This document shows positions 6,663 through 64,000 of a DNA stretch of 64,000 bases, piece after piece. Numbering within the stretch: position 1 is the stretch's first letter; each line of letters starts with the position of its first letter. Source of the DNA: a virus (Duplodnaviria; Caudoviricetes); the IMG/VR virus record IMGVR_UViG_3300024252_000005. One strand, given 5' to 3'. The notes beneath the pieces are model-generated. The model saw only the letters and a program-made list of their open reading frames with translations. It was not told where the DNA came from and made no database searches. The position numbers and the translations under genes are program-made.

Positions 6663-9600
6663 ATGGCAGAGCAGACATTTAAGTCTCCAGGCTTTTTTGA
6701 ACGTGAAATAGAAGTAATTAAAAGACCTATAGTAAGAAATAATAGTGTACCAGTTGGATTAGTTGGACCGTCTGTAAGAGGCCCTGCTTTTGTGCCCACT
6801 ACAGTATACTCAAGAGAAGAATTTATTAGAATATTTGGAGCACCTAGCAGAAGATTGCTAAGTGGACACGCAGCAGCAGAATTTTTTAGAAACGACGGCA
6901 AAGCATTAACATTTTGTAGGACACTAGGATCAGGAGTTTTCAACTCATCAACAGATAAATCAGCAGGTGCTGGATTTAAACTAACTCATACTTATAATAA
7001 TAACACTGATGCAGAACCAGCTTTTGGCGCAGTAAGATTTATTGCAGCTCAACACACAGTAGTTAATCCAGAGTTTTTAAGTCTTGGTATTTTTAACGAC
7101 AATGATTCACATACAACAACTGCTGATTTATTAGGAGGTGTCTTAGACAGTGATGCATCAAATGATAGCACACATCCTCTAGAAGGCATTGGCGAAGGCG
7201 GAGGTACTGCTGATTTTACTGTTGAACTAGTAAGAGCAATGATTTTTACTCATAAAGATTATACAACTACAGTTACAGCTAATGGCTCCGGTAATGATCA
7301 TGTTGCTGCTTCAAGCTCTAAGTTTACTATATATCTAATAGAAACAGGTAACATTGGGAGCCCTGCAACTATTAGCTATGAAGTTTCTTTGGATCCAGAA
7401 GCTTCTGACTATATTGCGAACGTTTTAAATACAGATCCTCTTTCATTTGACGATAAAAAGCATATGTTATATGCACATTTCCCAGTTGACGCCGCAGTTG
7501 CTTCTGTTGGGTCAGGTAATGTTGCAGTTCTTCAAGGAGACAGTACAAATGCACCAAAGTTTGGTAATTTTTCAAGTAGATTTGTAGCACCTAAAACTCC
7601 TAAGTTTATTTCTCAGCCATTTGGCAAAAAAGAGTATGATCTATTTCACTTTGAGTCACTTGATGATGGAGCTTATGCAAATGAAAATTATAAGATATCA
7701 ATATCTAATTTAAATGCAAGCACAGATCCAACAAATGATTTTGGCACATTTACAGTTACAATAAGAGATTTAAAAGACACTGATGAGTCTCCTATAGTTT
7801 ATGAGTCATTTACTCAGTGCTCTTTAGATCCAAATGCTACAAACTTTATTGCAAGAGTTATTGGCGATCAAAAGGTATTCTATAACTTAGATACAACTAA
7901 TCTTGATGAAAGAAGACTTGTTAGAGAAGGATCGTTTAGGAACGTTTCAACAAGAGCAAGAGTTGTAATGAGTGACGATGTACTAAAGGGTGAAGTACCA
8001 GATACAGCTCTTCCTTTTGGTTATAGAGGAGTTCCTGCGTTATTACTAAACACCGGTGGAACAGACAATAGAACAGCTAATACATTATTTACTAAAGGAA
8101 GAGCTGTTGATACCCCACATTTAGATCATTCTGTTTTACCACCTCTTCCTTATAGATTCAAGATAACAAAGGGAGACATTAGAGATGGCTCTTCATATAA
8201 TCAAACATTTACAGGCGAAGCATCAGCTTTAGAAGCTGTAAGTTTTGATTTACACTGGGGACTAATGCCTACAAGAGTTAAAGACATAAATAATCCAAAT
8301 AGTGGCACAGTTTTCAATGAATTATTATCTAACTACACTAAGTTCTTAGGAGCTGATGGTGATGTTGTAAAGACAGGCGCAATTGCTGACTCTCATAATA
8401 ATAACAAGTTTAGTTTGGCAAAGGTTGCTTTAAACAAAACATCGCTTTCAGATATTACTGGAACAATAAACGATATATTTAAAAATGCTGTATACATAAG
8501 AAATGCAGATGTTGATAAAAGTACAATATATGATTCTTCAAAGCACACTATAAAGATGGCTGCAGGAAGTGATAATTTAGCTTCTGAATTAGAAAGCGTA
8601 ACATTAACAAAGTTATTATCTGAAGATGTTGTTAAGTTTAATAAATATAGTTTAGTTGCAAAGTTTACAGCACCTTTCTATGGTGGCTTTGACGGGTTAA
8701 ACATTTTAGACAGTGACTCATACTTCATGACAGACAAAGCTGCTTCTACAGAAACAGGAGTTGGAAAAGCAACAGCATCAGGATTTCCAAGTGGTTTAGC
8801 TGGAACAACTAACGCAGTAATGCAAGGTTCAGAAGATGCTAATAACGTTATTGCTTCTTATAAGAATGCTATAAGATTAATGACAGATGATTTAGTTGTT
8901 AATCATAATGTTCTTGTTGTTCCTAACGTTAGAGATCCTTTCGTAACAGACTTTGCAAAGCGAAGAGTAGAAGAATACGGTAAAGCGCTTTATGTAATGG
9001 ACCTTCAGCAGTTTGATTCTGCTTCTACAAGAATATTTGTTAATGAAAGAGGTATTGCTTCAGGAAGAGCAGATGTTGATACAACTTCATCAAAGTTTGA
9101 TACTCGTGAGGTTAATTCATCATATGTAGCATCTTATTTCCCAGACGTAATGGTTCAGGATAGTGGAGATGATGATACAGCTGCAGAAAACAGTAGAAGA
9201 TCAATCAGGGTTCCTTCTTCAATTGTAGCTCTTGGTGCATTGGCAAAAACTGATGAGGTTTCGCAGCCCTGGTTTGCTCCTGCTGGATTTACAAGAGGAG
9301 CTCTAAATACAATTACGTCTTTGGATGTAAGATTAAACGCAGAGGATCGTGATACACTTTATGAGGCTCGAATTAATCCTATTGCAAACTTCCCTAACAA
9401 GCAATTTGTTATCTTTGGTCAGAAGACATCACAGTTAGCAAGAACTGCTTTGGATCGTGTCAACGTAAGAAGGCTCGTTTTGGAAGTGAAGCGTAGAATT
9501 GAAATTATTGCACAAGGTCTATTGTTTGAGCAAAACAACAAGACAACAAGAGATAACTTTATTGCAAATTCTTCAGGTTCATTAGCAACAATTCAGTTAG

Positions 9601-53081: not shown

Positions 53082-53846
53082 ATGCCAAGAAAGACGACTT
53101 TAGTAGAACTAACATGTAGTCATTGCAAAATAAAATATAAAAAGCATATGTCTAAATCTTTAAATTCTAAGTTTTGTTCTAGAAATTGCAAAGATGATTC
53201 AAGCAAGAAAAGAGAGAAAAAAGAGTGTTTAAGCTGCAAAACTTTATTTGAAACAAATAGAAACCAAGTTTATTGTAAAAGAGAATGCTACATTAAAGAA
53301 AACAAAATAAAGAGAGTTAGCTTAAATTGTCAATTTTGTGGTAAAGATTACGAAAAGCCTGAGACCAATATTACTAAGTATTGCGGAAAAGAATGTCAAA
53401 ATAAAGCACAAAGTAGTGGCTTAAAAGAAATACCTTCTAATGGAAGAATGGGATTTAGATATGATTTACCAAAAAACTATTTTTTCAAATCTTCTCTAGA
53501 AGCTGACTATGCAAGATGGTGTGAGTTTACAAATAAACCTTACATTTATGAACACAAAACATTTACAGTTCAATATGAAGGAAGGGAAAAGCACTATACA
53601 CCAGACTTCTACCACCCAGATGAAGACAGGTACGTAGAGTTAAAAGCAATAAGAAGAGATAGAAAGTTTAATTCAAATTTGCTAGCTGCTGACTTGTTAA
53701 AAATTGATGGTGTCAATATTGATGTATTATTAATGCATGAGTTTTATACACAAATAAAGCAGAGCAATCACTACTGGCTTATTGAAAACATTGAAAACAA
53801 AAATTACAATGGAACAAGACACCTTATATATCTTAAAAAACATTGA
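53082..53846 (+). CDS. Zinc-ribbon-repeat PD-(D/E)xK endonuclease (putative homing endonuclease A)
   Basis: Repeated CxxC...FCSxxC units; YTPDFY...YVELK catalytic core. Confidence 0.75.
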   Translation: MPRKTTLVELTCSHCKIKYKKHMSKSLNSKFCSRNCKDDSSKKREKKECLSCKTLFETNRNQVYCKRECYIKENKIKRVSLNCQFCGKDYEKPETNITKYCGKECQNKAQSSGLKEIPSNGRMGFRYDLPKNYFFKSSLEADYARWCEFTNKPYIYEHKTFTVQYEGREKHYTPDFYHPDEDRYVELKAIRRDRKFNSNLLAADLLKIDGVNIDVLLMHEFYTQIKQSNHYWLIENIENKNYNGTRHLIYLKKH

Positions 53847-59047: not shown

Positions 59048-59505
59048 TTTTTAAATCCTAGAATTATTCCGTAAGAAAGACTATCAATTATTTTTGTAAC
59101 ATCGGATGTGCTTTTATTAGCTTTTATAATTATACTTTTACTGCCATCTAAAGTATCAATTACAGAACTAGATTCCTCTATTGAAGATGAATTACCATTT
59201 GTTCCGTTAATTTTTGCTGTCGTAGTGTTTTCAATAGTAGATCCGTCTGAATAGTGTAGTTTTGTGTATACATAAGTGCTAGTTGAAGTTCTTTCGATCC
59301 CTAGGAAAAATCTAACTATAAATTCATATCCTGACGGCAACGTTATTACATTGCCTGATAAAGTTATAGCATCATCTCCTGACATACTATTAATTGGCAC
59401 AGTATCACTAAAAGATGAAGTTGAAGTAATAGAAAAATCACTTCCTAATTTAAATTCACATAGCAAACTTTCTGCTACGTCTGTAAGGTTTATATTGTAA
59501 GACAT
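59044..59505 (-). CDS. M[ST]Y-start small beta protein, cassette 4 gene 1
   Basis: Starts MSY; ITLSGNVITLPSG resembles C1q/BclA-type jelly rolls. Confidence 0.75.
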   Translation of the reverse strand: MSYNINLTDVAESLLCEFKLGSDFSITSTSSFSDTVPINSMSGDDAITLSGNVITLPSGYEFIVRFFLGIERTSTSTYVYTKLHYSDGSTIENTTTAKINGTNGNSSSIEESSSVIDTLDGSKSIIIKANKSTSDVTKIIDSLSYGIILGFKK

Positions 59506-59642
59506 TTTACTATTTCTTCCTGCTCATCAGAAACCTCAGACCACCCAGGAATATTTAGCGATTTAAAATCTCTTTCATTGATAGTACATTTATTCCACTC
59601 TAATAATAACACTTTAAACTCTTTCCTATTCAGATTGTTCAT
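59490..59642 (-). CDS. 50-aa ORF absent from the ORF track
   Basis: MNNLNRKEFKVLLLEWNKCTINE...; AAGGA SD; resembles the N-terminus of 41594..42271. Confidence 0.45.
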   Translation of the reverse strand: MNNLNRKEFKVLLLEWNKCTINERDFKSLNIPGWSEVSDEQEEIVKCLTI

Positions 59643-59666
59643 TTATGATCCTTAGTAATTACAATA

Positions 59667-59696
59667 CGTGTAAATTAAATATTAATTAAATATAAT
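59667..59696 (+). promoter_or_regulatory. Sigma70-like promoter CGTGTAAATT...TATAAT
   Basis: TGTAAA 59669-59674, 16-nt spacer, TATAAT 59691-59696; upstream of dnaE. Confidence 0.7.
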
Positions 59697-59731
59697 AAAA
59701 CACAAATTAAACATAAACTATAAGGAATAAA

Positions 59732-61507
59732 ATGAATAATACATTTAATACGGAAAGGAGGTATCTAGAGAAGGTTGAACTTGAACTGCTTACACCTAAC
59801 AGATTTGTTAGCTTGCATTCGCATTCAACCTTCTCGTAGATATCTACGTTTGATGGATTAGGTTACCCATCAGATCATATAGACTTCGTACTTTCTGAAT
59901 CACAAGGTATGGATGCTTGGGCACTAACAGACCACGGCAATGGCAACGGTCTTGCTCACGCGCATTCACACGCTGTCAAAATGCAAAAGGCTGGGAAAAA
60001 GTTTAGACAAATCTACGGCGTCGAATTCTACTTCGTTCCTTCACTAGATCAATGGACTAATGACTACACAGCACACCGACAAGCAATTAAAGATGCAAAA
60101 ACTGCTGCTGCTGCAGAAAAGAAGTCTAATGAAGAAATCATCATTGATGCTGATGATGAAAGCGGTGGTCTTGTTATAGAGGATGAAGATGAATCCAAAA
60201 AGATTGATATTCTTAAAGATGAATGGAAACGTCGCTATCACTTAGTAGTCACAGCAAGAAATAGAAAAGGACTTAATAACCTATTTGTTTTAGTAAAGAA
60301 GTCTTACAAAGATGGATTTTATCGATACCCACGTATTGACTTTAAAATGCTTAAAGAACACGGCGAAGGCTTACACGTAAATTCTGCATGTTTAGGTGGG
60401 ATTTTTAGCAATAGAATACTCCGCGGCGTTGCACATGATAAGTCACGTGATGAAATCCAAAAAGATCTTTTAAATCTTACAGACAGATTTACAGACGCAG
60501 TTGGTATTGAAAACTTCAAACTAGAACTACAGTTCAACAAGCTAAACAAACAACACGTTGTTAATGACTACCTTATAGAACATCATAAACTAACTGGTAT
60601 TCCTCTCATCTCAACAGCAGATTCTCATTACCCGAGCAACGATAAATGGCAAGCAAGAGAGTTATATAAGAAACTTGGCTGGCTTGGTAAGAAAGATAAC
60701 TTAACTCTTCCAGCATTTGAAGATCTTAAATGTGAGTTGTATCCTAAAAATGCACAACAAATGTGGGATGAGTTCCTTGAAGGGTACAAAGAACACGATT
60801 TCTATAAAGGTAATGAGCAGTTAGTTAAAGAGTCAATAGAAAGAACGCATGATATTGTTTGGAATGATTTTGAAGACACTTGGATTGATGTAAGTGCAAA
60901 GCTTCCAACAATAACAATACCTGATAAGACACCGTTCAGACACCTATCAGACTTGGTTAAAAACGCTCTCGTTTCTGAAGGTTTACATACTAACAAAGAG
61001 TACGTAGATAGAGCTAAGTATGAGTTGTCTGATATTAAGTATCTTGGCCATGAAGCGTACTTTATCACAATGTATGAGATCTTTAAAAAAGCTGAAACAA
61101 AGACATTATTTGGAGCTGGAAGAGGCTCAGGTGCGGGGAGTTTAGTTAACTACTTGTTAGGCATTACACAACTCGATCCAATTCCTTATAACTTACTTTG
61201 GAGTAGATTTTTAGGCAGACATAGATGTCTAGACGAAGATACTTACGTTATATCTGAATGTGGTAAAAAGAAGATTAAAGATGTTAGTGAAGGCGAAAAA
61301 GTACTAACTCATACAGGTCAGTATAGAAAAATTATTGATAAGGCTGTAACACAACATGATATGGCTGTTGAAATAAAATTTAATGGTCGTAAAATTATTT
61401 GCTCGCCTAATCATCGTTGGATTGTTAATCGTAATGGTAACGAAGTAGAAACAATGGCATGCCATTTACAAAAAGGTGACAAACTTATAAAAAACATCTA
61501 TGCATGA
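59732..61507 (+). CDS. dnaE: DNA polymerase III alpha, N-terminal half (PHP + palm start) fused to N-intein; in-frame TAG at 59837
   Basis: FVSLHSHSTFS*ISTFDG, LTDHG, GVEFY, ADSHY, GRGSGAGSLV.YLLGIT.LDP. Confidence 0.9.
61226..61504 (+). mobile_element. Split intein, N-fragment (93 aa)
   Basis: Block A CLDEDT, block B CSPNHRW, ends L.KGDKL followed by a stop. Confidence 0.9.
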
Positions 61508-62468
61508 TATATTTACCCAAGAAAACCTGCCCGGAAGCGATTATATGGAAGAGAAAGATTACCTCAAAAAAATTTCTTGCAAAAATTGTAATCTAGATTT
61601 TGTAATAAATTTCAAAATGTCAGACCAAGGTTCTATTGCAAAGTGTAACAGATTGTATTGCAGTAACAAGTGTAAAAAAGTGTATCTTAAAAAGAATGGT
61701 TCGAAAAGTTCTATAAAACTTAGATGTAAACATTGCAGCAATGTTTATTTTAAACCAAAGTCACTTTCAATTAACTCAAAATTTTGTAGTAGGATTTGTC
61801 AAAATAGAAGTTACGCAAATGAAAATCAAAAAGATAGAAAACAAATCAATTGTAAAGTTTGTGACAAAGTTCTTTCTGTTATAGAAGGCTCTAAAAGAAA
61901 ATATTGCAGCCATAAATGCAGTCATTTAGGTCAAAAAGGTAATACAAAAATATTTGAATGTGCTGTTTGTAAACAAGAGAAAGTTATATTGGAAAATGAC
62001 AATAGAACTTATTGCGGTAGAAATTGTCAATATAAAGCGCAGTCGTTAGGTATGATAAAAATACCAACAAAAGGTAGAAGCGGTTATAGAATAGACTTGC
62101 CTGCTACGATGTATTTTAAAAGTGCACTTGAAGCAGATTACGCTAGATATTTAAAATTTCTTAATATTAGCTTTAAGTATGAATGCAAGTGTTTTGAATT
62201 AGATGACAGTGGCAAGAAAAGAAGATACACACCAGACTTTTATATAGACAAAGAAGATATGTTTGTTGAAATGAAAGCTGGCAGGAAAGATAAAAAGTTC
62301 TCTAAGAATTTAGAGTGCGTGCAATTAGTAAAAAACTGTGGTTATAATATAAAAGTGATATACATGTCTGAATTTTATGACATGCTTAAAAAAGAAAACT
62401 TATATGAGGAGATTCCAAACATTGAAAGACGAAATTACAAAAAAACAAAACGCCTTATACGAGATTGA
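61500..62468 (+). CDS. Zinc-ribbon-repeat PD-(D/E)xK endonuclease (putative homing endonuclease B) between the dnaE halves
   Basis: CxxC/FCSxxC repeats; YTPDFY...FVEMK; paralogue of 53082..53846. Confidence 0.8.
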   Translation: MHDIFTQENLPGSDYMEEKDYLKKISCKNCNLDFVINFKMSDQGSIAKCNRLYCSNKCKKVYLKKNGSKSSIKLRCKHCSNVYFKPKSLSINSKFCSRICQNRSYANENQKDRKQINCKVCDKVLSVIEGSKRKYCSHKCSHLGQKGNTKIFECAVCKQEKVILENDNRTYCGRNCQYKAQSLGMIKIPTKGRSGYRIDLPATMYFKSALEADYARYLKFLNISFKYECKCFELDDSGKKRRYTPDFYIDKEDMFVEMKAGRKDKKFSKNLECVQLVKNCGYNIKVIYMSEFYDMLKKENLYEEIPNIERRNYKKTKRLIRD

Positions 62469-64000
62469 GGAAATCAACTTTGTACATTACGATCAAGATA
62501 TGATTGATATTGAAGTAGAAGGCGATCACACTTTCTACGTTTCAGAAGACCCCATGAATGAATTTATCTTGACACATAATACAAGCTGGCCGGATATCGA
62601 CACAGATGCTGGAGACCGAGATGAGCTGATCAACGCAGCAAAAGAGTTATATGGCGACGACGCTGTTATTCCAGTATCAAACTTTAACACTCTTAAACTT
62701 AAATCACTTGTTAAAGACATTGCAAAGTTTTATGATATCCCGTTTGACGAAGTCAATAAGGTAACTGGTCCGCTTCAAGATCAAGTTATGCAAAAAGCAA
62801 TGGATAAAAATCAAGAAAAGTCTGTATTTGTCCTTAAACATGAAGACTGCATGAAATACTCTCCTGAGTATAATGAATTTATGACAACTTATCCGGAAGT
62901 TGCTGAGCATGTTGAAACGTTGTTTATGCAAAACAGGGCTATTGGACGACATGCGGGAGGCGTGATAATAGCTGATGCAGATGCACTTGCAGAGTCAATG
63001 CCGATTGTTGGTGTTCGTGGAGAACTACAAACACCGTGGACTGAAGGTATGAACTTTAGGAATCTTGAAGACAACGGTTTTCTAAAGTTTGACTTCTTAG
63101 GTTTAACGCTGCTTAAAGATGTAGAGAATTGCATTTATAGAATCCTAAGAAAAAGCGGAATGAAAAATCCTGCATTCACAGATGCAAGAGCATTCTTTGA
63201 TAAGCATTTAAACTGTAGGTTTGTCAAACAGGATGACCCTAAAGTTTGGGAACATGTGTATAAGGATGGTCACTTCGTTGGTATATTCCAGTTCACAAAT
63301 CAGGGAGCTAGACAGTTTTCAATGGATGCATCGCCTGTAAGTATACAGGAGTTAGCAACAATTACTGCGATATATCGCCCTGGACCGCTTAAAGCAAATG
63401 TGCACAAGAAATATGTTGAGGCAAAAAACAATGCTAATGATATTGTGTACGATCATCCTATCATAGAAGAAGTACTTGGATATACTTACGGCTACTTTTG
63501 CTTTCAAGAGCAATTCATGTTGATGGCACAAAAGCTTGCTGGGTTTTCACCGGGTGAGAGTGATAAGTTACGAAAGACGCTTGTAAAGAAATCACTAGAC
63601 ACTTTGCATTCTAAAGGATCAGAAAAGGCAGTTGCTAGAGAGAAGTTTATTAAAGGTGCCAAAGAGCTCAATGACATCCCTGAGAGTATTTCTTCGAAGC
63701 TCTGGCAAGACATAGAAGGTTTCGCAGTTTATGGCTTCAATCTTTCCCATGCAGTTGCGTATGCTATTGGGTCGTATTACGCGGCATGGCTACATACACA
63801 TCACGAGACTGAGTGGATGGCAGCGATATTGCAATCTGAGAATGGTAATCCTAAAGGAATGTCAAAAGCCATTTCAGAGATTAAGTCGTTTGGATATGAA
63901 ATTGCTGCAATAGATATAAACCACTCTGAAGCTGAATGGGAATATTCTGATGTGTTGAAAGCTTTTGTGCCGCCGTTGACATCGCTTAAAGGAGTAGGTG
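62422..64000 (+). CDS. dnaE: DNA polymerase III alpha, C-terminal half preceded by C-intein (runs off the window; start uncertain)
   Basis: Frame is open from 62359 (ATG 62377, ATG 62404, or TTG 62422 with GAGGAG SD); SWPDIDTD, HAGGV, LKFDFLGL, GIFQF, YRPGP, FNLSHAVAY. Confidence 0.9.
   Translation, partial: MKDEITKKQNALYEIEEINFVHYDQDMIDIEVEGDHTFYVSEDPMNEFILTHNTSWPDIDTDAGDRDELINAAKELYGDDAVIPVSNFNTLKLKSLVKDIAKFYDIPFDEVNKVTGPLQDQVMQKAMDKNQEKSVFVLKHEDCMKYSPEYNEFMTTYPEVAEHVETLFMQNRAIGRHAGGVIIADADALAESMPIVGVRGELQTPWTEGMNFRNLEDNGFLKFDFLGLTLLKDVENCIYRILRKSGMKNPAFTDARAFFDKHLNCRFVKQDDPKVWEHVYKDGHFVGIFQFTNQGARQFSMDASPVSIQELATITAIYRPGPLKANVHKKYVEAKNNANDIVYDHPIIEEVLGYTYGYFCFQEQFMLMAQKLAGFSPGESDKLRKTLVKKSLDTLHSKGSEKAVAREKFIKGAKELNDIPESISSKLWQDIEGFAVYGFNLSHAVAYAIGSYYAAWLHTHHETEWMAAILQSENGNPKGMSKAISEIKSFGYEIAAIDINHSEAEWEYSDVLKAFVPPLTSLKGVG
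62461..62580 (+). mobile_element. Split intein, C-fragment
   Basis: EIEEI...IDIEVEGDHTFY...ILTHN followed by +1 Thr (ACA). Confidence 0.9.

Follow-up and report, generated by a model that had tools for sequence, protein, structure and literature searches.

The DNA polymerase III (Pol III) alpha gene, dnaE, in a 64,000-nucleotide stretch of viral DNA (Duplodnaviria; Caudoviricetes; IMG/VR record IMGVR_UViG_3300024252_000005), hereafter called the window, is fractured: its two halves form separate open reading frames (ORFs) that each carry one part of an intein, and a nuclease gene stands between them. The arrangement is very probably that of a split intein, predicted to act by trans-splicing, with an intervening nuclease that likely mobilises it. 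The window has 33% G+C, is densely coding and reads well with the standard code; no tRNA genes were found in it, and a megablast search of 59700-64000 against a phage collection gave no match. dnaE lies on the + strand from 59732 and is split after ...FLGRHR (61225), four residues ahead of the catalytic PDIDTD and at about position 98 of 260 of the Pfam DNA_pol3_alpha profile on both sides of the break, a site which we take to lie near R396/V397 of E. coli DnaE. The upstream ORF ends in ...FLGRHR/CLDEDT...KGDKLIKNIYA (the slash marks the extein-intein boundary) with a TGA stop at 61505-61507, and the downstream ORF, open from 62359, runs through ...DIEVEGDHTFY...ILTHN/TSWPDIDTD with the +1 Thr at 62581. 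Both the DnaE-N end with its intein tail (61226-61504) and the DnaE-C start, with the C-terminal intein part (IntC) ending at 62580, are thus as a first-pass annotation of this DNA had described them. The N half, the nuclease and the C half occupy frames 2, 3 and 1, so that read-through cannot join the halves. The components are as follows (aa, amino acids; dN/dS, ratio of non-synonymous to synonymous substitution rates; IntN, the N-terminal intein part):

59732-61225, + strand: dnaE N-extein (PHP and first part of the palm); Pfam PHP 1.4e-22 and DNA_pol3_alpha 4.1e-23 (profile 9-98); dN/dS 0.04-0.08
61226-61507 (coding to 61504), + strand: IntN, 93 aa plus TGA; Cys1 in CLDEDT; block B CSPNH; best PDB sequence match gp41-1 6riz, E 0.001
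61545-62468, + strand: free-standing nuclease, 307 aa from ATG 61545 (322 aa from ATG 61500); four CxxC...CxxxC zinc ribbons, then a PD-(D/E)xK domain (SALEAD...YTPDF...VEMK)
62422-62580, + strand: IntC, 53 aa from TTG 62422 (alternatives ATG 62404 and 62377); block F DIEVEGDHTF, block G LTHN; assigned from invariant residues and complex prediction
62581-64000, + strand: dnaE C-extein with the +1 Thr first; TSWPDIDTD with the catalytic aspartates; Pfam DNA_pol3_alpha 90-260 and DNA_pol3_finger 7e-36; continues past the window end

In the mechanism we propose, the three ORFs would probably be co-transcribed, with the C half starting within the 3' end of the nuclease gene, and Pol III alpha would be made as two polypeptides, the N-extein with the 93-aa IntN and a ~53-aa IntC with the C-extein. 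The basic IntN and the very acidic IntC would pair into a gp41-1-like HINT fold, and class-1 trans-splicing, with nucleophilic attack by Cys1 and the +1 Thr and a final cyclisation of the terminal Asn, would join GRHR to TSWPDIDTD and rebuild the palm just ahead of the catalytic aspartates. The nuclease, which appears to combine a four-zinc-ribbon DNA-binding array with a T7 endonuclease I-like PD-(D/E)xK domain, would likely mobilise the cassette (IntN, nuclease and IntC), or itself, into unoccupied alleles during co-infection.

The tails of the dnaE halves are parts of a class-1 intein

Among solved structures, the gp41-1 intein is closest in sequence to both tails (6riz, E 0.001, for IntN; 6qaz for IntC, a weak match as the query is short), and Pfam gives sub-threshold Intein_splicing and Hint_2 matches on the N tail. 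We aligned the window's IntN and IntC with the homologous halves of twelve related loci (loci are cited below by L numbers). Within IntN, C1, S60, N62 and H63 are invariant in 13 alleles; Cys1 (TGT at 61226) is a first-residue nucleophile as in class-1 inteins, and block B reads S-P-N-H in 13 of 13 alleles, a conservative variant of TxxH in which the His is kept and Ser takes the place of Thr. Within IntC, D29 and H36 of block F and T51-H52-N53 of block G are invariant in 12 alleles, again as in class-1 inteins. These splicing residues are unchanged among alleles down to ~35% identity. The two parts lie on separate ORFs (frames 2 and 1) and carry opposite net charges, +3 for IntN and -11 for IntC. 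A predicted IntN-IntC complex scored 0.80, against 0.00 for the best control, with 98% of contacts shared by three runs and a partner pLDDT of 78; IntC residues 1-10 (counted from 62422) lie outside the predicted interface. A mark of 0.80 is attained by 58 of 80 solved complexes and by 2 of 110 mismatched pairs, and since solved split-intein complexes exist, this result shows likeness rather than independent proof. Together, these features support the prediction of a naturally split class-1 intein with a +1 Thr.

Allelic states at the dnaE site

A scan of IMG/VR with the N half gave 79 loci, which were sorted by tblastn with five query pieces. At ~55 of them the site is empty, and the N-extein runs straight into the C-extein in one frame; the junction there is GRHR-(V/T/A)-SWPDID, with GLHK or similar in place of GRHR in some. 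Because these alleles are contiguous, they fix the splice junction exactly, and the predicted rebuilt junction GRHR-TSWPDIDTD with a +1 Thr that had been proposed from the window's letters holds to the residue. One locus (L031) has a contiguous mini-intein of 141 aa at the same site. About ten loci have split halves with the same nuclease between them (L002/L080, L003, L032, L025, L054, L069, L073; nuclease identity 75% to 33%), and two distant nuclease homologues, P0017 and P0029, are likewise flanked by dnaE pieces. Homologues at 33-47% identity to the nuclease are among those placed between dnaE halves. Loci L001 and L013, whose exteins are 98% identical to those of the window, have the split halves and no nuclease: IntN ends ...KLIRLDRDK-TAA, followed by AGGAATAAA and then by the ATG that opens IntC (MKDNNLYEIEE...), with a Shine-Dalgarno (SD) sequence between the halves. 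These two loci had been taken for cis mini-inteins from tblastn coordinates, an assignment dropped when translation showed the TAA, SD and ATG between the halves. In L047 an unrelated antisense ORF of 324 aa (7613-8587, - strand), without a Pfam or PHROG match, occupies the nuclease's place, and in L027 the halves are separated by a 3.4-kb multi-ORF insert, in which a 524-aa ORF has no useful PDB match and only a sub-threshold match to REase_MTES_1575, making it tentatively Vsr-like. Two further forms, each on one contig, came from an exhaustive profile search with the nuclease: in L084 (1158-5273) a single ORF of 1371 aa includes a contiguous intein at this site, into which the nuclease domain is built in frame (43% identical to that of the window, E 4e-34), and in L085 (3001-5673) the full nuclease continues in frame into IntC and the C half of dnaE.

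Since the same halves occur with nothing, an antisense ORF, the nuclease or 3.4 kb between them, only a trans reaction on two polypeptides would serve all of these alleles. This bears on the alternative that the interruption never reaches the protein, being spliced out of the RNA as a group I or group II intron or bypassed by the ribosome, which would give a contiguous precursor with a cis-intein. Phage polymerase genes often have introns with endonuclease ORFs, and the same gene may use a short translational bypass near its 5' end (see below). Against this, there is no Rfam family in 59400-64000 at E up to 1, RNA folds at both junctions are no better than those of shuffled sequences (z +1.37 and -0.70), non-coding sequence between the ORFs amounts to at most 37 nucleotides (nt), and the halves are separated in relatives by a stop, SD and ATG, by an antisense gene or by 3.4 kb. 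No terminator-like sites were found at the ORF junctions. We therefore find removal as RNA or by bypass hardly credible, and retain trans-splicing as the preferred reading.

The dnaE genes of some relatives are broken more than once. In L030 (8476-8955) and L083 (3050-3541), a single ORF joins the C-part of a different split intein, a middle extein of only ~33 aa (SGAGS...GRHR) and the N-part of the present intein, and the dnaE of L083 is in at least four pieces; L084 has a second intein with a DUF559-type domain at its end. Inserts of 0.7-1.7 kb, presumably other inteins, introns or endonuclease genes, occur at three other recurrent dnaE positions, namely N-extein residue ~161 (L013, L055, L056, L061, L062, L071, L077), C-extein ~121 (L013, L047) and C-extein ~389-399 (L002, L011, L012, L032, L039, L061, L071). 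In L073 (9210-9240), the C-extein that follows the intein starts with SGAPDID, gives way to CVH... and is matched again ~2.6 kb on, so that a second intervening element appears to interrupt the catalytic PDIDxD motif, seven residues away from the first one.

The +1 residue and purifying selection

A nucleophile follows the intein in all 13 intein-bearing alleles (Thr in 10 and Ser in 3), in keeping with class-1 splicing, whereas the 55 empty alleles have Thr in 17 and Val or Ala in 38 (Fisher p 4e-6, a value that overstates independence because the sequences are related). The contrast recurs in three separate close pairs (the window vs. L004, L003 vs. L014 and L054 vs. L064), and empty alleles with Thr may once have carried the intein. 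A +1 nucleophile matters only if the peptide bond is made, which argues against intein halves that merely hold the fragments together. Under that alternative the halves would serve as a dimerisation handle only and the DnaE fragments would never be ligated, much as in the intein-less split NrdA of phage Aeh1; fractured genes that lack inteins and work as non-covalent assemblies are indeed known (PMC3045599; discussed in PMC2677866), and sequence alone gives no proof of ligation. However, the residues needed only for the chemistry (Cys1, the block B His, the block F Asp and His and the terminal His-Asn) are invariant, and a +1 nucleophile in 13 of 13 intein alleles stands against Val or Ala in most empty ones. 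We consider a pure dimerisation role improbable.

Selection was assessed as dN/dS between alleles with near-saturated synonymous sites. Values of 0.06-0.10 for IntN, 0.03-0.17 for IntC, about 0.10-0.12 for the nuclease and 0.04-0.08 for the exteins show that both intein halves, the nuclease and the exteins are under strong purifying selection. This is difficult to reconcile with a decaying pseudogene, broken by a selfish nuclease in a phage that replicates with another polymerase. What speaks for decay is an in-frame stop: the reading frame from ATG 59732 hits a TAG at 59837-59839, and the uninterrupted ORF begins at ATG 59909. The TAG itself is conserved in at least 10 relatives, though, and the fractured arrangement recurs in many independent contigs at 35-98% identity, making decay highly improbable compared with a functional, fractured dnaE.

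The TAG is at the same position in L002, L003, L009, L014, L017, L019, L027, L030, L047 and L055. TAG-bearing alleles (window 59826-59850) read TTC TC(G/C) TAG (A/G)TA TCT AC(N) TTT GAT, with L027 reading TCC TAA TAA TCT, and alleles without the stop have an uninterrupted T-F-S-T-F-D-G. A Ser codon precedes the TAG and a second one follows 6 nt later, as would suit a short bypass of the take-off and landing type. The window and L001 become homologous only from 59846, just past the TAG element, which thus also marks the edge of an alternative 5' module.

Start codons and overlaps

The first-pass annotation had a 322-aa nuclease ORF overlapping both dnaE halves. The ORF (61500-62468) and its overlap with the C half are borne out, and the overlap with the N half exists only with ATG 61500, which is found only in the window's close lineage. 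ATG 61545 (MEEK(D/E)Y), kept in L002 and L003 and located 37 nt past the IntN stop, gives no N-half overlap and is the probable nuclease start. At the other end, the nuclease and C-half ORFs overlap by 47, 65 or 92 nt depending on the C-half start chosen, as in known fractured genes. Three starts (62377, 62404 and 62422) had been put forward. TTG 62422 is 10 nt after GAGGAG, both TTG and GAGGAG are kept in L002 and L003, and the TTG aligns with the IntC ATG of L001 and L013. ATG 62404 is ACG in L003, but in L025 the corresponding position does have an ATG with an SD, and the TTG of L025 has none before it. ATG 62377 would be unusable in L025, whose frame opens later, and so drops out as unlikely. 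The sequence comparison favours 62422, then 62404. In L025 (7570-7602), an inverted repeat, TACTCCTA...TAGGAGTA, lies between the IntN stop and the nuclease start, where it would sequester the nuclease's SD sequence; it resembles the hairpins of Dassa et al. (PMC2677866) upstream of such endonucleases and has no equivalent in the window.

The intervening nuclease

Homologues of the nuclease, 31 proteins in a 90%-clustered collection, are all unnamed or hypothetical, and the exhaustive profile search gave ~60 full-length clusters at 50% identity, with 120 matches at E <= 1e-30; tblastn against deposited phages returned only three weak partial matches. The family alignment has four CxxC...CxxxC units, followed by invariant S..E.D..R, YTPDF and E.K elements and a C-terminal NLE.RNY tail, and E196, D231, E242 and K244 are invariant in the 31 sequences. 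When the family profile is compared with T7 endonuclease I (1m0d; E 3.3e-6), these four residues fall on E20, D55, E65 and K67 (numbers counted from the 1m0d chain sequence), and a few family members have a precomputed match to Phage_endo_I (PF05367). The earlier description of a multi-zinc-ribbon YTPDF-type nuclease therefore stands, with four ribbons and a YTPDF...ExK core that forms a T7 endonuclease I-like active site.

The AlphaFold2 model (pLDDT 90.3) has a restriction-endonuclease fold. For the C-terminal domain, VIA-align gives TnsA (Z 8.0), I-Bth0305I (3r3p; Z 7.2) and Vsr (1cw0; Z 6.7), values that lie within about 1 of each other and are tied, so that only the general fold is established. 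Foldseek with the whole model found no match at E <= 0.001, as the zinc-ribbon array dominates the model. T7 endonuclease I is unranked in the structural match list, which we read as a consequence of its domain-swapped dimer rather than as counter-evidence. In PHROG the ribbon array matches a family annotated as HNH endonucleases and the nuclease domain matches resolvase-like families, a division that would fit a modular phage endonuclease. Members of the EDxHD family are recognised by the conserved residues E, D, xH and D and by NUMOD/HTH motifs (PMC3239194). The present nuclease shares only the general restriction-endonuclease fold with the Vsr-like enzymes; its invariant residues are E, D, E and K, and we keep it out of the EDxHD family because it has no invariant His, has ExK and uses zinc ribbons. 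The intervening gene would encode a free-standing, probably site-specific DNA endonuclease.

A paralogue of the nuclease is present in the window at 53082-53846 (+ strand), ~6.6 kb upstream of dnaE. It is free-standing, has 254 aa and three zinc ribbons vs. four, and is 42% identical over residues 72-320. Many relatives have similar ~255-aa paralogues upstream of dnaE.

Probable mobility and history of the cassette

In an extein tree (a quick method, midpoint-rooted, with seventeen short or partial loci left out), the five split alleles with nuclease are scattered and need five changes, each standing beside an empty allele, in one case only 0.009 away. From the IntC core into the C-extein, a stretch of 588 nt, the window matches L001 at 99.8% identity, and in the N-extein the two are mosaic (0-14 mismatches per 100 nt). 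Given this near-identity, the gain or loss of the nuclease between them was recent. The L001 IntC head, ATG AAA GAC AAT AAT CTA TAC, aligns with TTG AAA GAC ... AAC GCC TTA TAC of the window if an 18-nt indel is allowed, and this stretch of the window doubles as the 3' end of the nuclease gene, encoding its conserved NIERRNY tail. As the L001 head can be aligned to the end of the nuclease gene, the split alleles without nuclease would have arisen from a fractured allele by nuclease deletion.

Splicing could proceed as proposed with a nuclease that does not home, being domesticated or competitive (cutting rival phage genomes or resolving DNA junctions) and merely resident between the halves. 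Such a role is suggested by an active site that is a junction resolvase's, by the ~255-aa paralogues (~40% identity) that stand alone elsewhere in the genomes, the window included, and by nuclease divergence that follows host-gene divergence. On the other hand, the ~300-aa four-ribbon subfamily is found between dnaE intein halves in every context examined, the nuclease domain of L084 is nested in frame in the intein at this site, which is where homing endonuclease domains classically lie, and presence and absence are scattered among near-identical exteins. We regard a non-homing nuclease as unlikely, though it deserves to be taken seriously, and prefer a mobilising one. In its strongest form, this reading would make the nuclease a true site-specific homing endonuclease of an undescribed lineage, and would have the site record the whole life cycle of gene fracture: empty, with a mini-intein, with a nested nuclease, with the nuclease fused to the C half, with a free-standing nuclease between split halves, and with split halves after its loss. 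From the sequences, we consider this combined claim an attractive possibility that falls just short of being probable.

Several points count against a trans-splicing intein with a mobilising nuclease. T7 endonuclease I, the closest match to the active site, is a junction resolvase and not a homing enzyme, and the window's nuclease itself scores 18.6 bits against PF05367, below the gathering cut-off of 29.1. In block B, Ser replaces the Thr found in most inteins. The early in-frame TAG makes expression of the N half uncertain, and the C-half start codon could still be either TTG 62422 or ATG 62404. Finally, the intein and the nuclease have diverged roughly in step with the exteins, as would also be expected from old vertical inheritance and frequent loss in place of active homing.

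Significance and comparison with known systems

Accounts of how inteins split have so far been drawn mostly from end states. The present phage alleles, at up to 98% identity, differ only in being empty, split with nuclease or split without nuclease, and so open the proposed gene-breaking pathway to a direct test. Among the few homing endonuclease scaffolds, a classical PD-(D/E)xK domain of T7 endonuclease I type behind a modular zinc-ribbon array would be an addition, and the compact gp41-1-like pair with a +1 Thr (Ser in relatives) comes with many natural variants that could be screened as protein-ligation tools. Of all this, the allelic series and the nuclease family matter most.

Fractured genes were defined in 2009 from ocean metagenomes, with dnaE among eight host enzymes and three dnaE loci (DnaE-1, DnaE-2 and DnaE-3) at three insertion points; their endonucleases are GIY-YIG or Vsr-like (the latter subsequently named EDxHD) and overlap the downstream intein part by 6-69 bp (PMC2677866). 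The first-pass annotation was therefore right that split inteins with intervening endonucleases, Vsr-like ones included, are known from environmental phage DNA. Like those of Dassa et al., the locus in the window has adjacent host-gene halves on one strand, each with an intein part, and a free-standing endonuclease between them, with dnaE as the host gene and a marine or environmental phage origin. Unlike them, it has a nuclease with a classical E-D-ExK tetrad behind four zinc ribbons and no significant hairpin upstream of the nuclease.

The gp41-1 intein (6qaz, 6riz) shares the split point, similar lengths, a basic N-part and acidic C-part, a polarity described by Dassa et al. (PMC2677866), and the DIEV.G.H.FY...LTHN wording. 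It differs in its host gene, a helicase rather than a polymerase, the present intein being only ~30% identical to it over IntN and having a +1 Thr. The cyanobacterial DnaE split inteins (Ssp and Npu; PolIII alpha insertion point a) are likewise natural split inteins of the same enzyme rebuilt by trans-splicing, which is predicted here, but they sit in the finger domain with halves far apart and no endonuclease (PMC4760082), whereas the present halves are ~1 kb apart and the break is in the palm. Cellular PolIII alpha inteins surveyed to date cluster in the fingers and PHP domain (PMC4760082).

With T7 endonuclease I (1m0d; PF05367) the nuclease shares the invariant E, D, E and K, aligned on its tetrad, and the YTPDF wording, while TnsA is the best structural match covering most of the nuclease domain (Z 8.0). 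Four N-terminal zinc ribbons, the C-terminal NLExRNY tail and the setting of a mobile endonuclease, rather than a resolvase or transposase, set it apart from both. I-Bth0305I and the EDxHD enzymes have a similar plan, an N-terminal DNA-binding part with a C-terminal nuclease of restriction-endonuclease fold, and also occur in fractured genes; they differ in having E-D-xH-D, absent here, and NUMOD/HTH motifs in place of zinc ribbons, and a PDB profile search gave no match to them at E up to 10. In the literature searched, neither a T7 endonuclease I-like zinc-ribbon nuclease in a fractured-gene role nor adjacent split-intein halves without an intervening gene are described. The first-pass annotation had proposed a new trans-splicing pair with a zinc-ribbon YTPDF nuclease and a Thr nucleophile; the predicted split class-1 intein, the +1 Thr and the nuclease type hold up, while fractured dnaE genes with split inteins had already been reported. 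Set beside these systems, the arrangement is a known one, and what the window and its relatives add is the type of nuclease, the allelic series and perhaps the insertion site.

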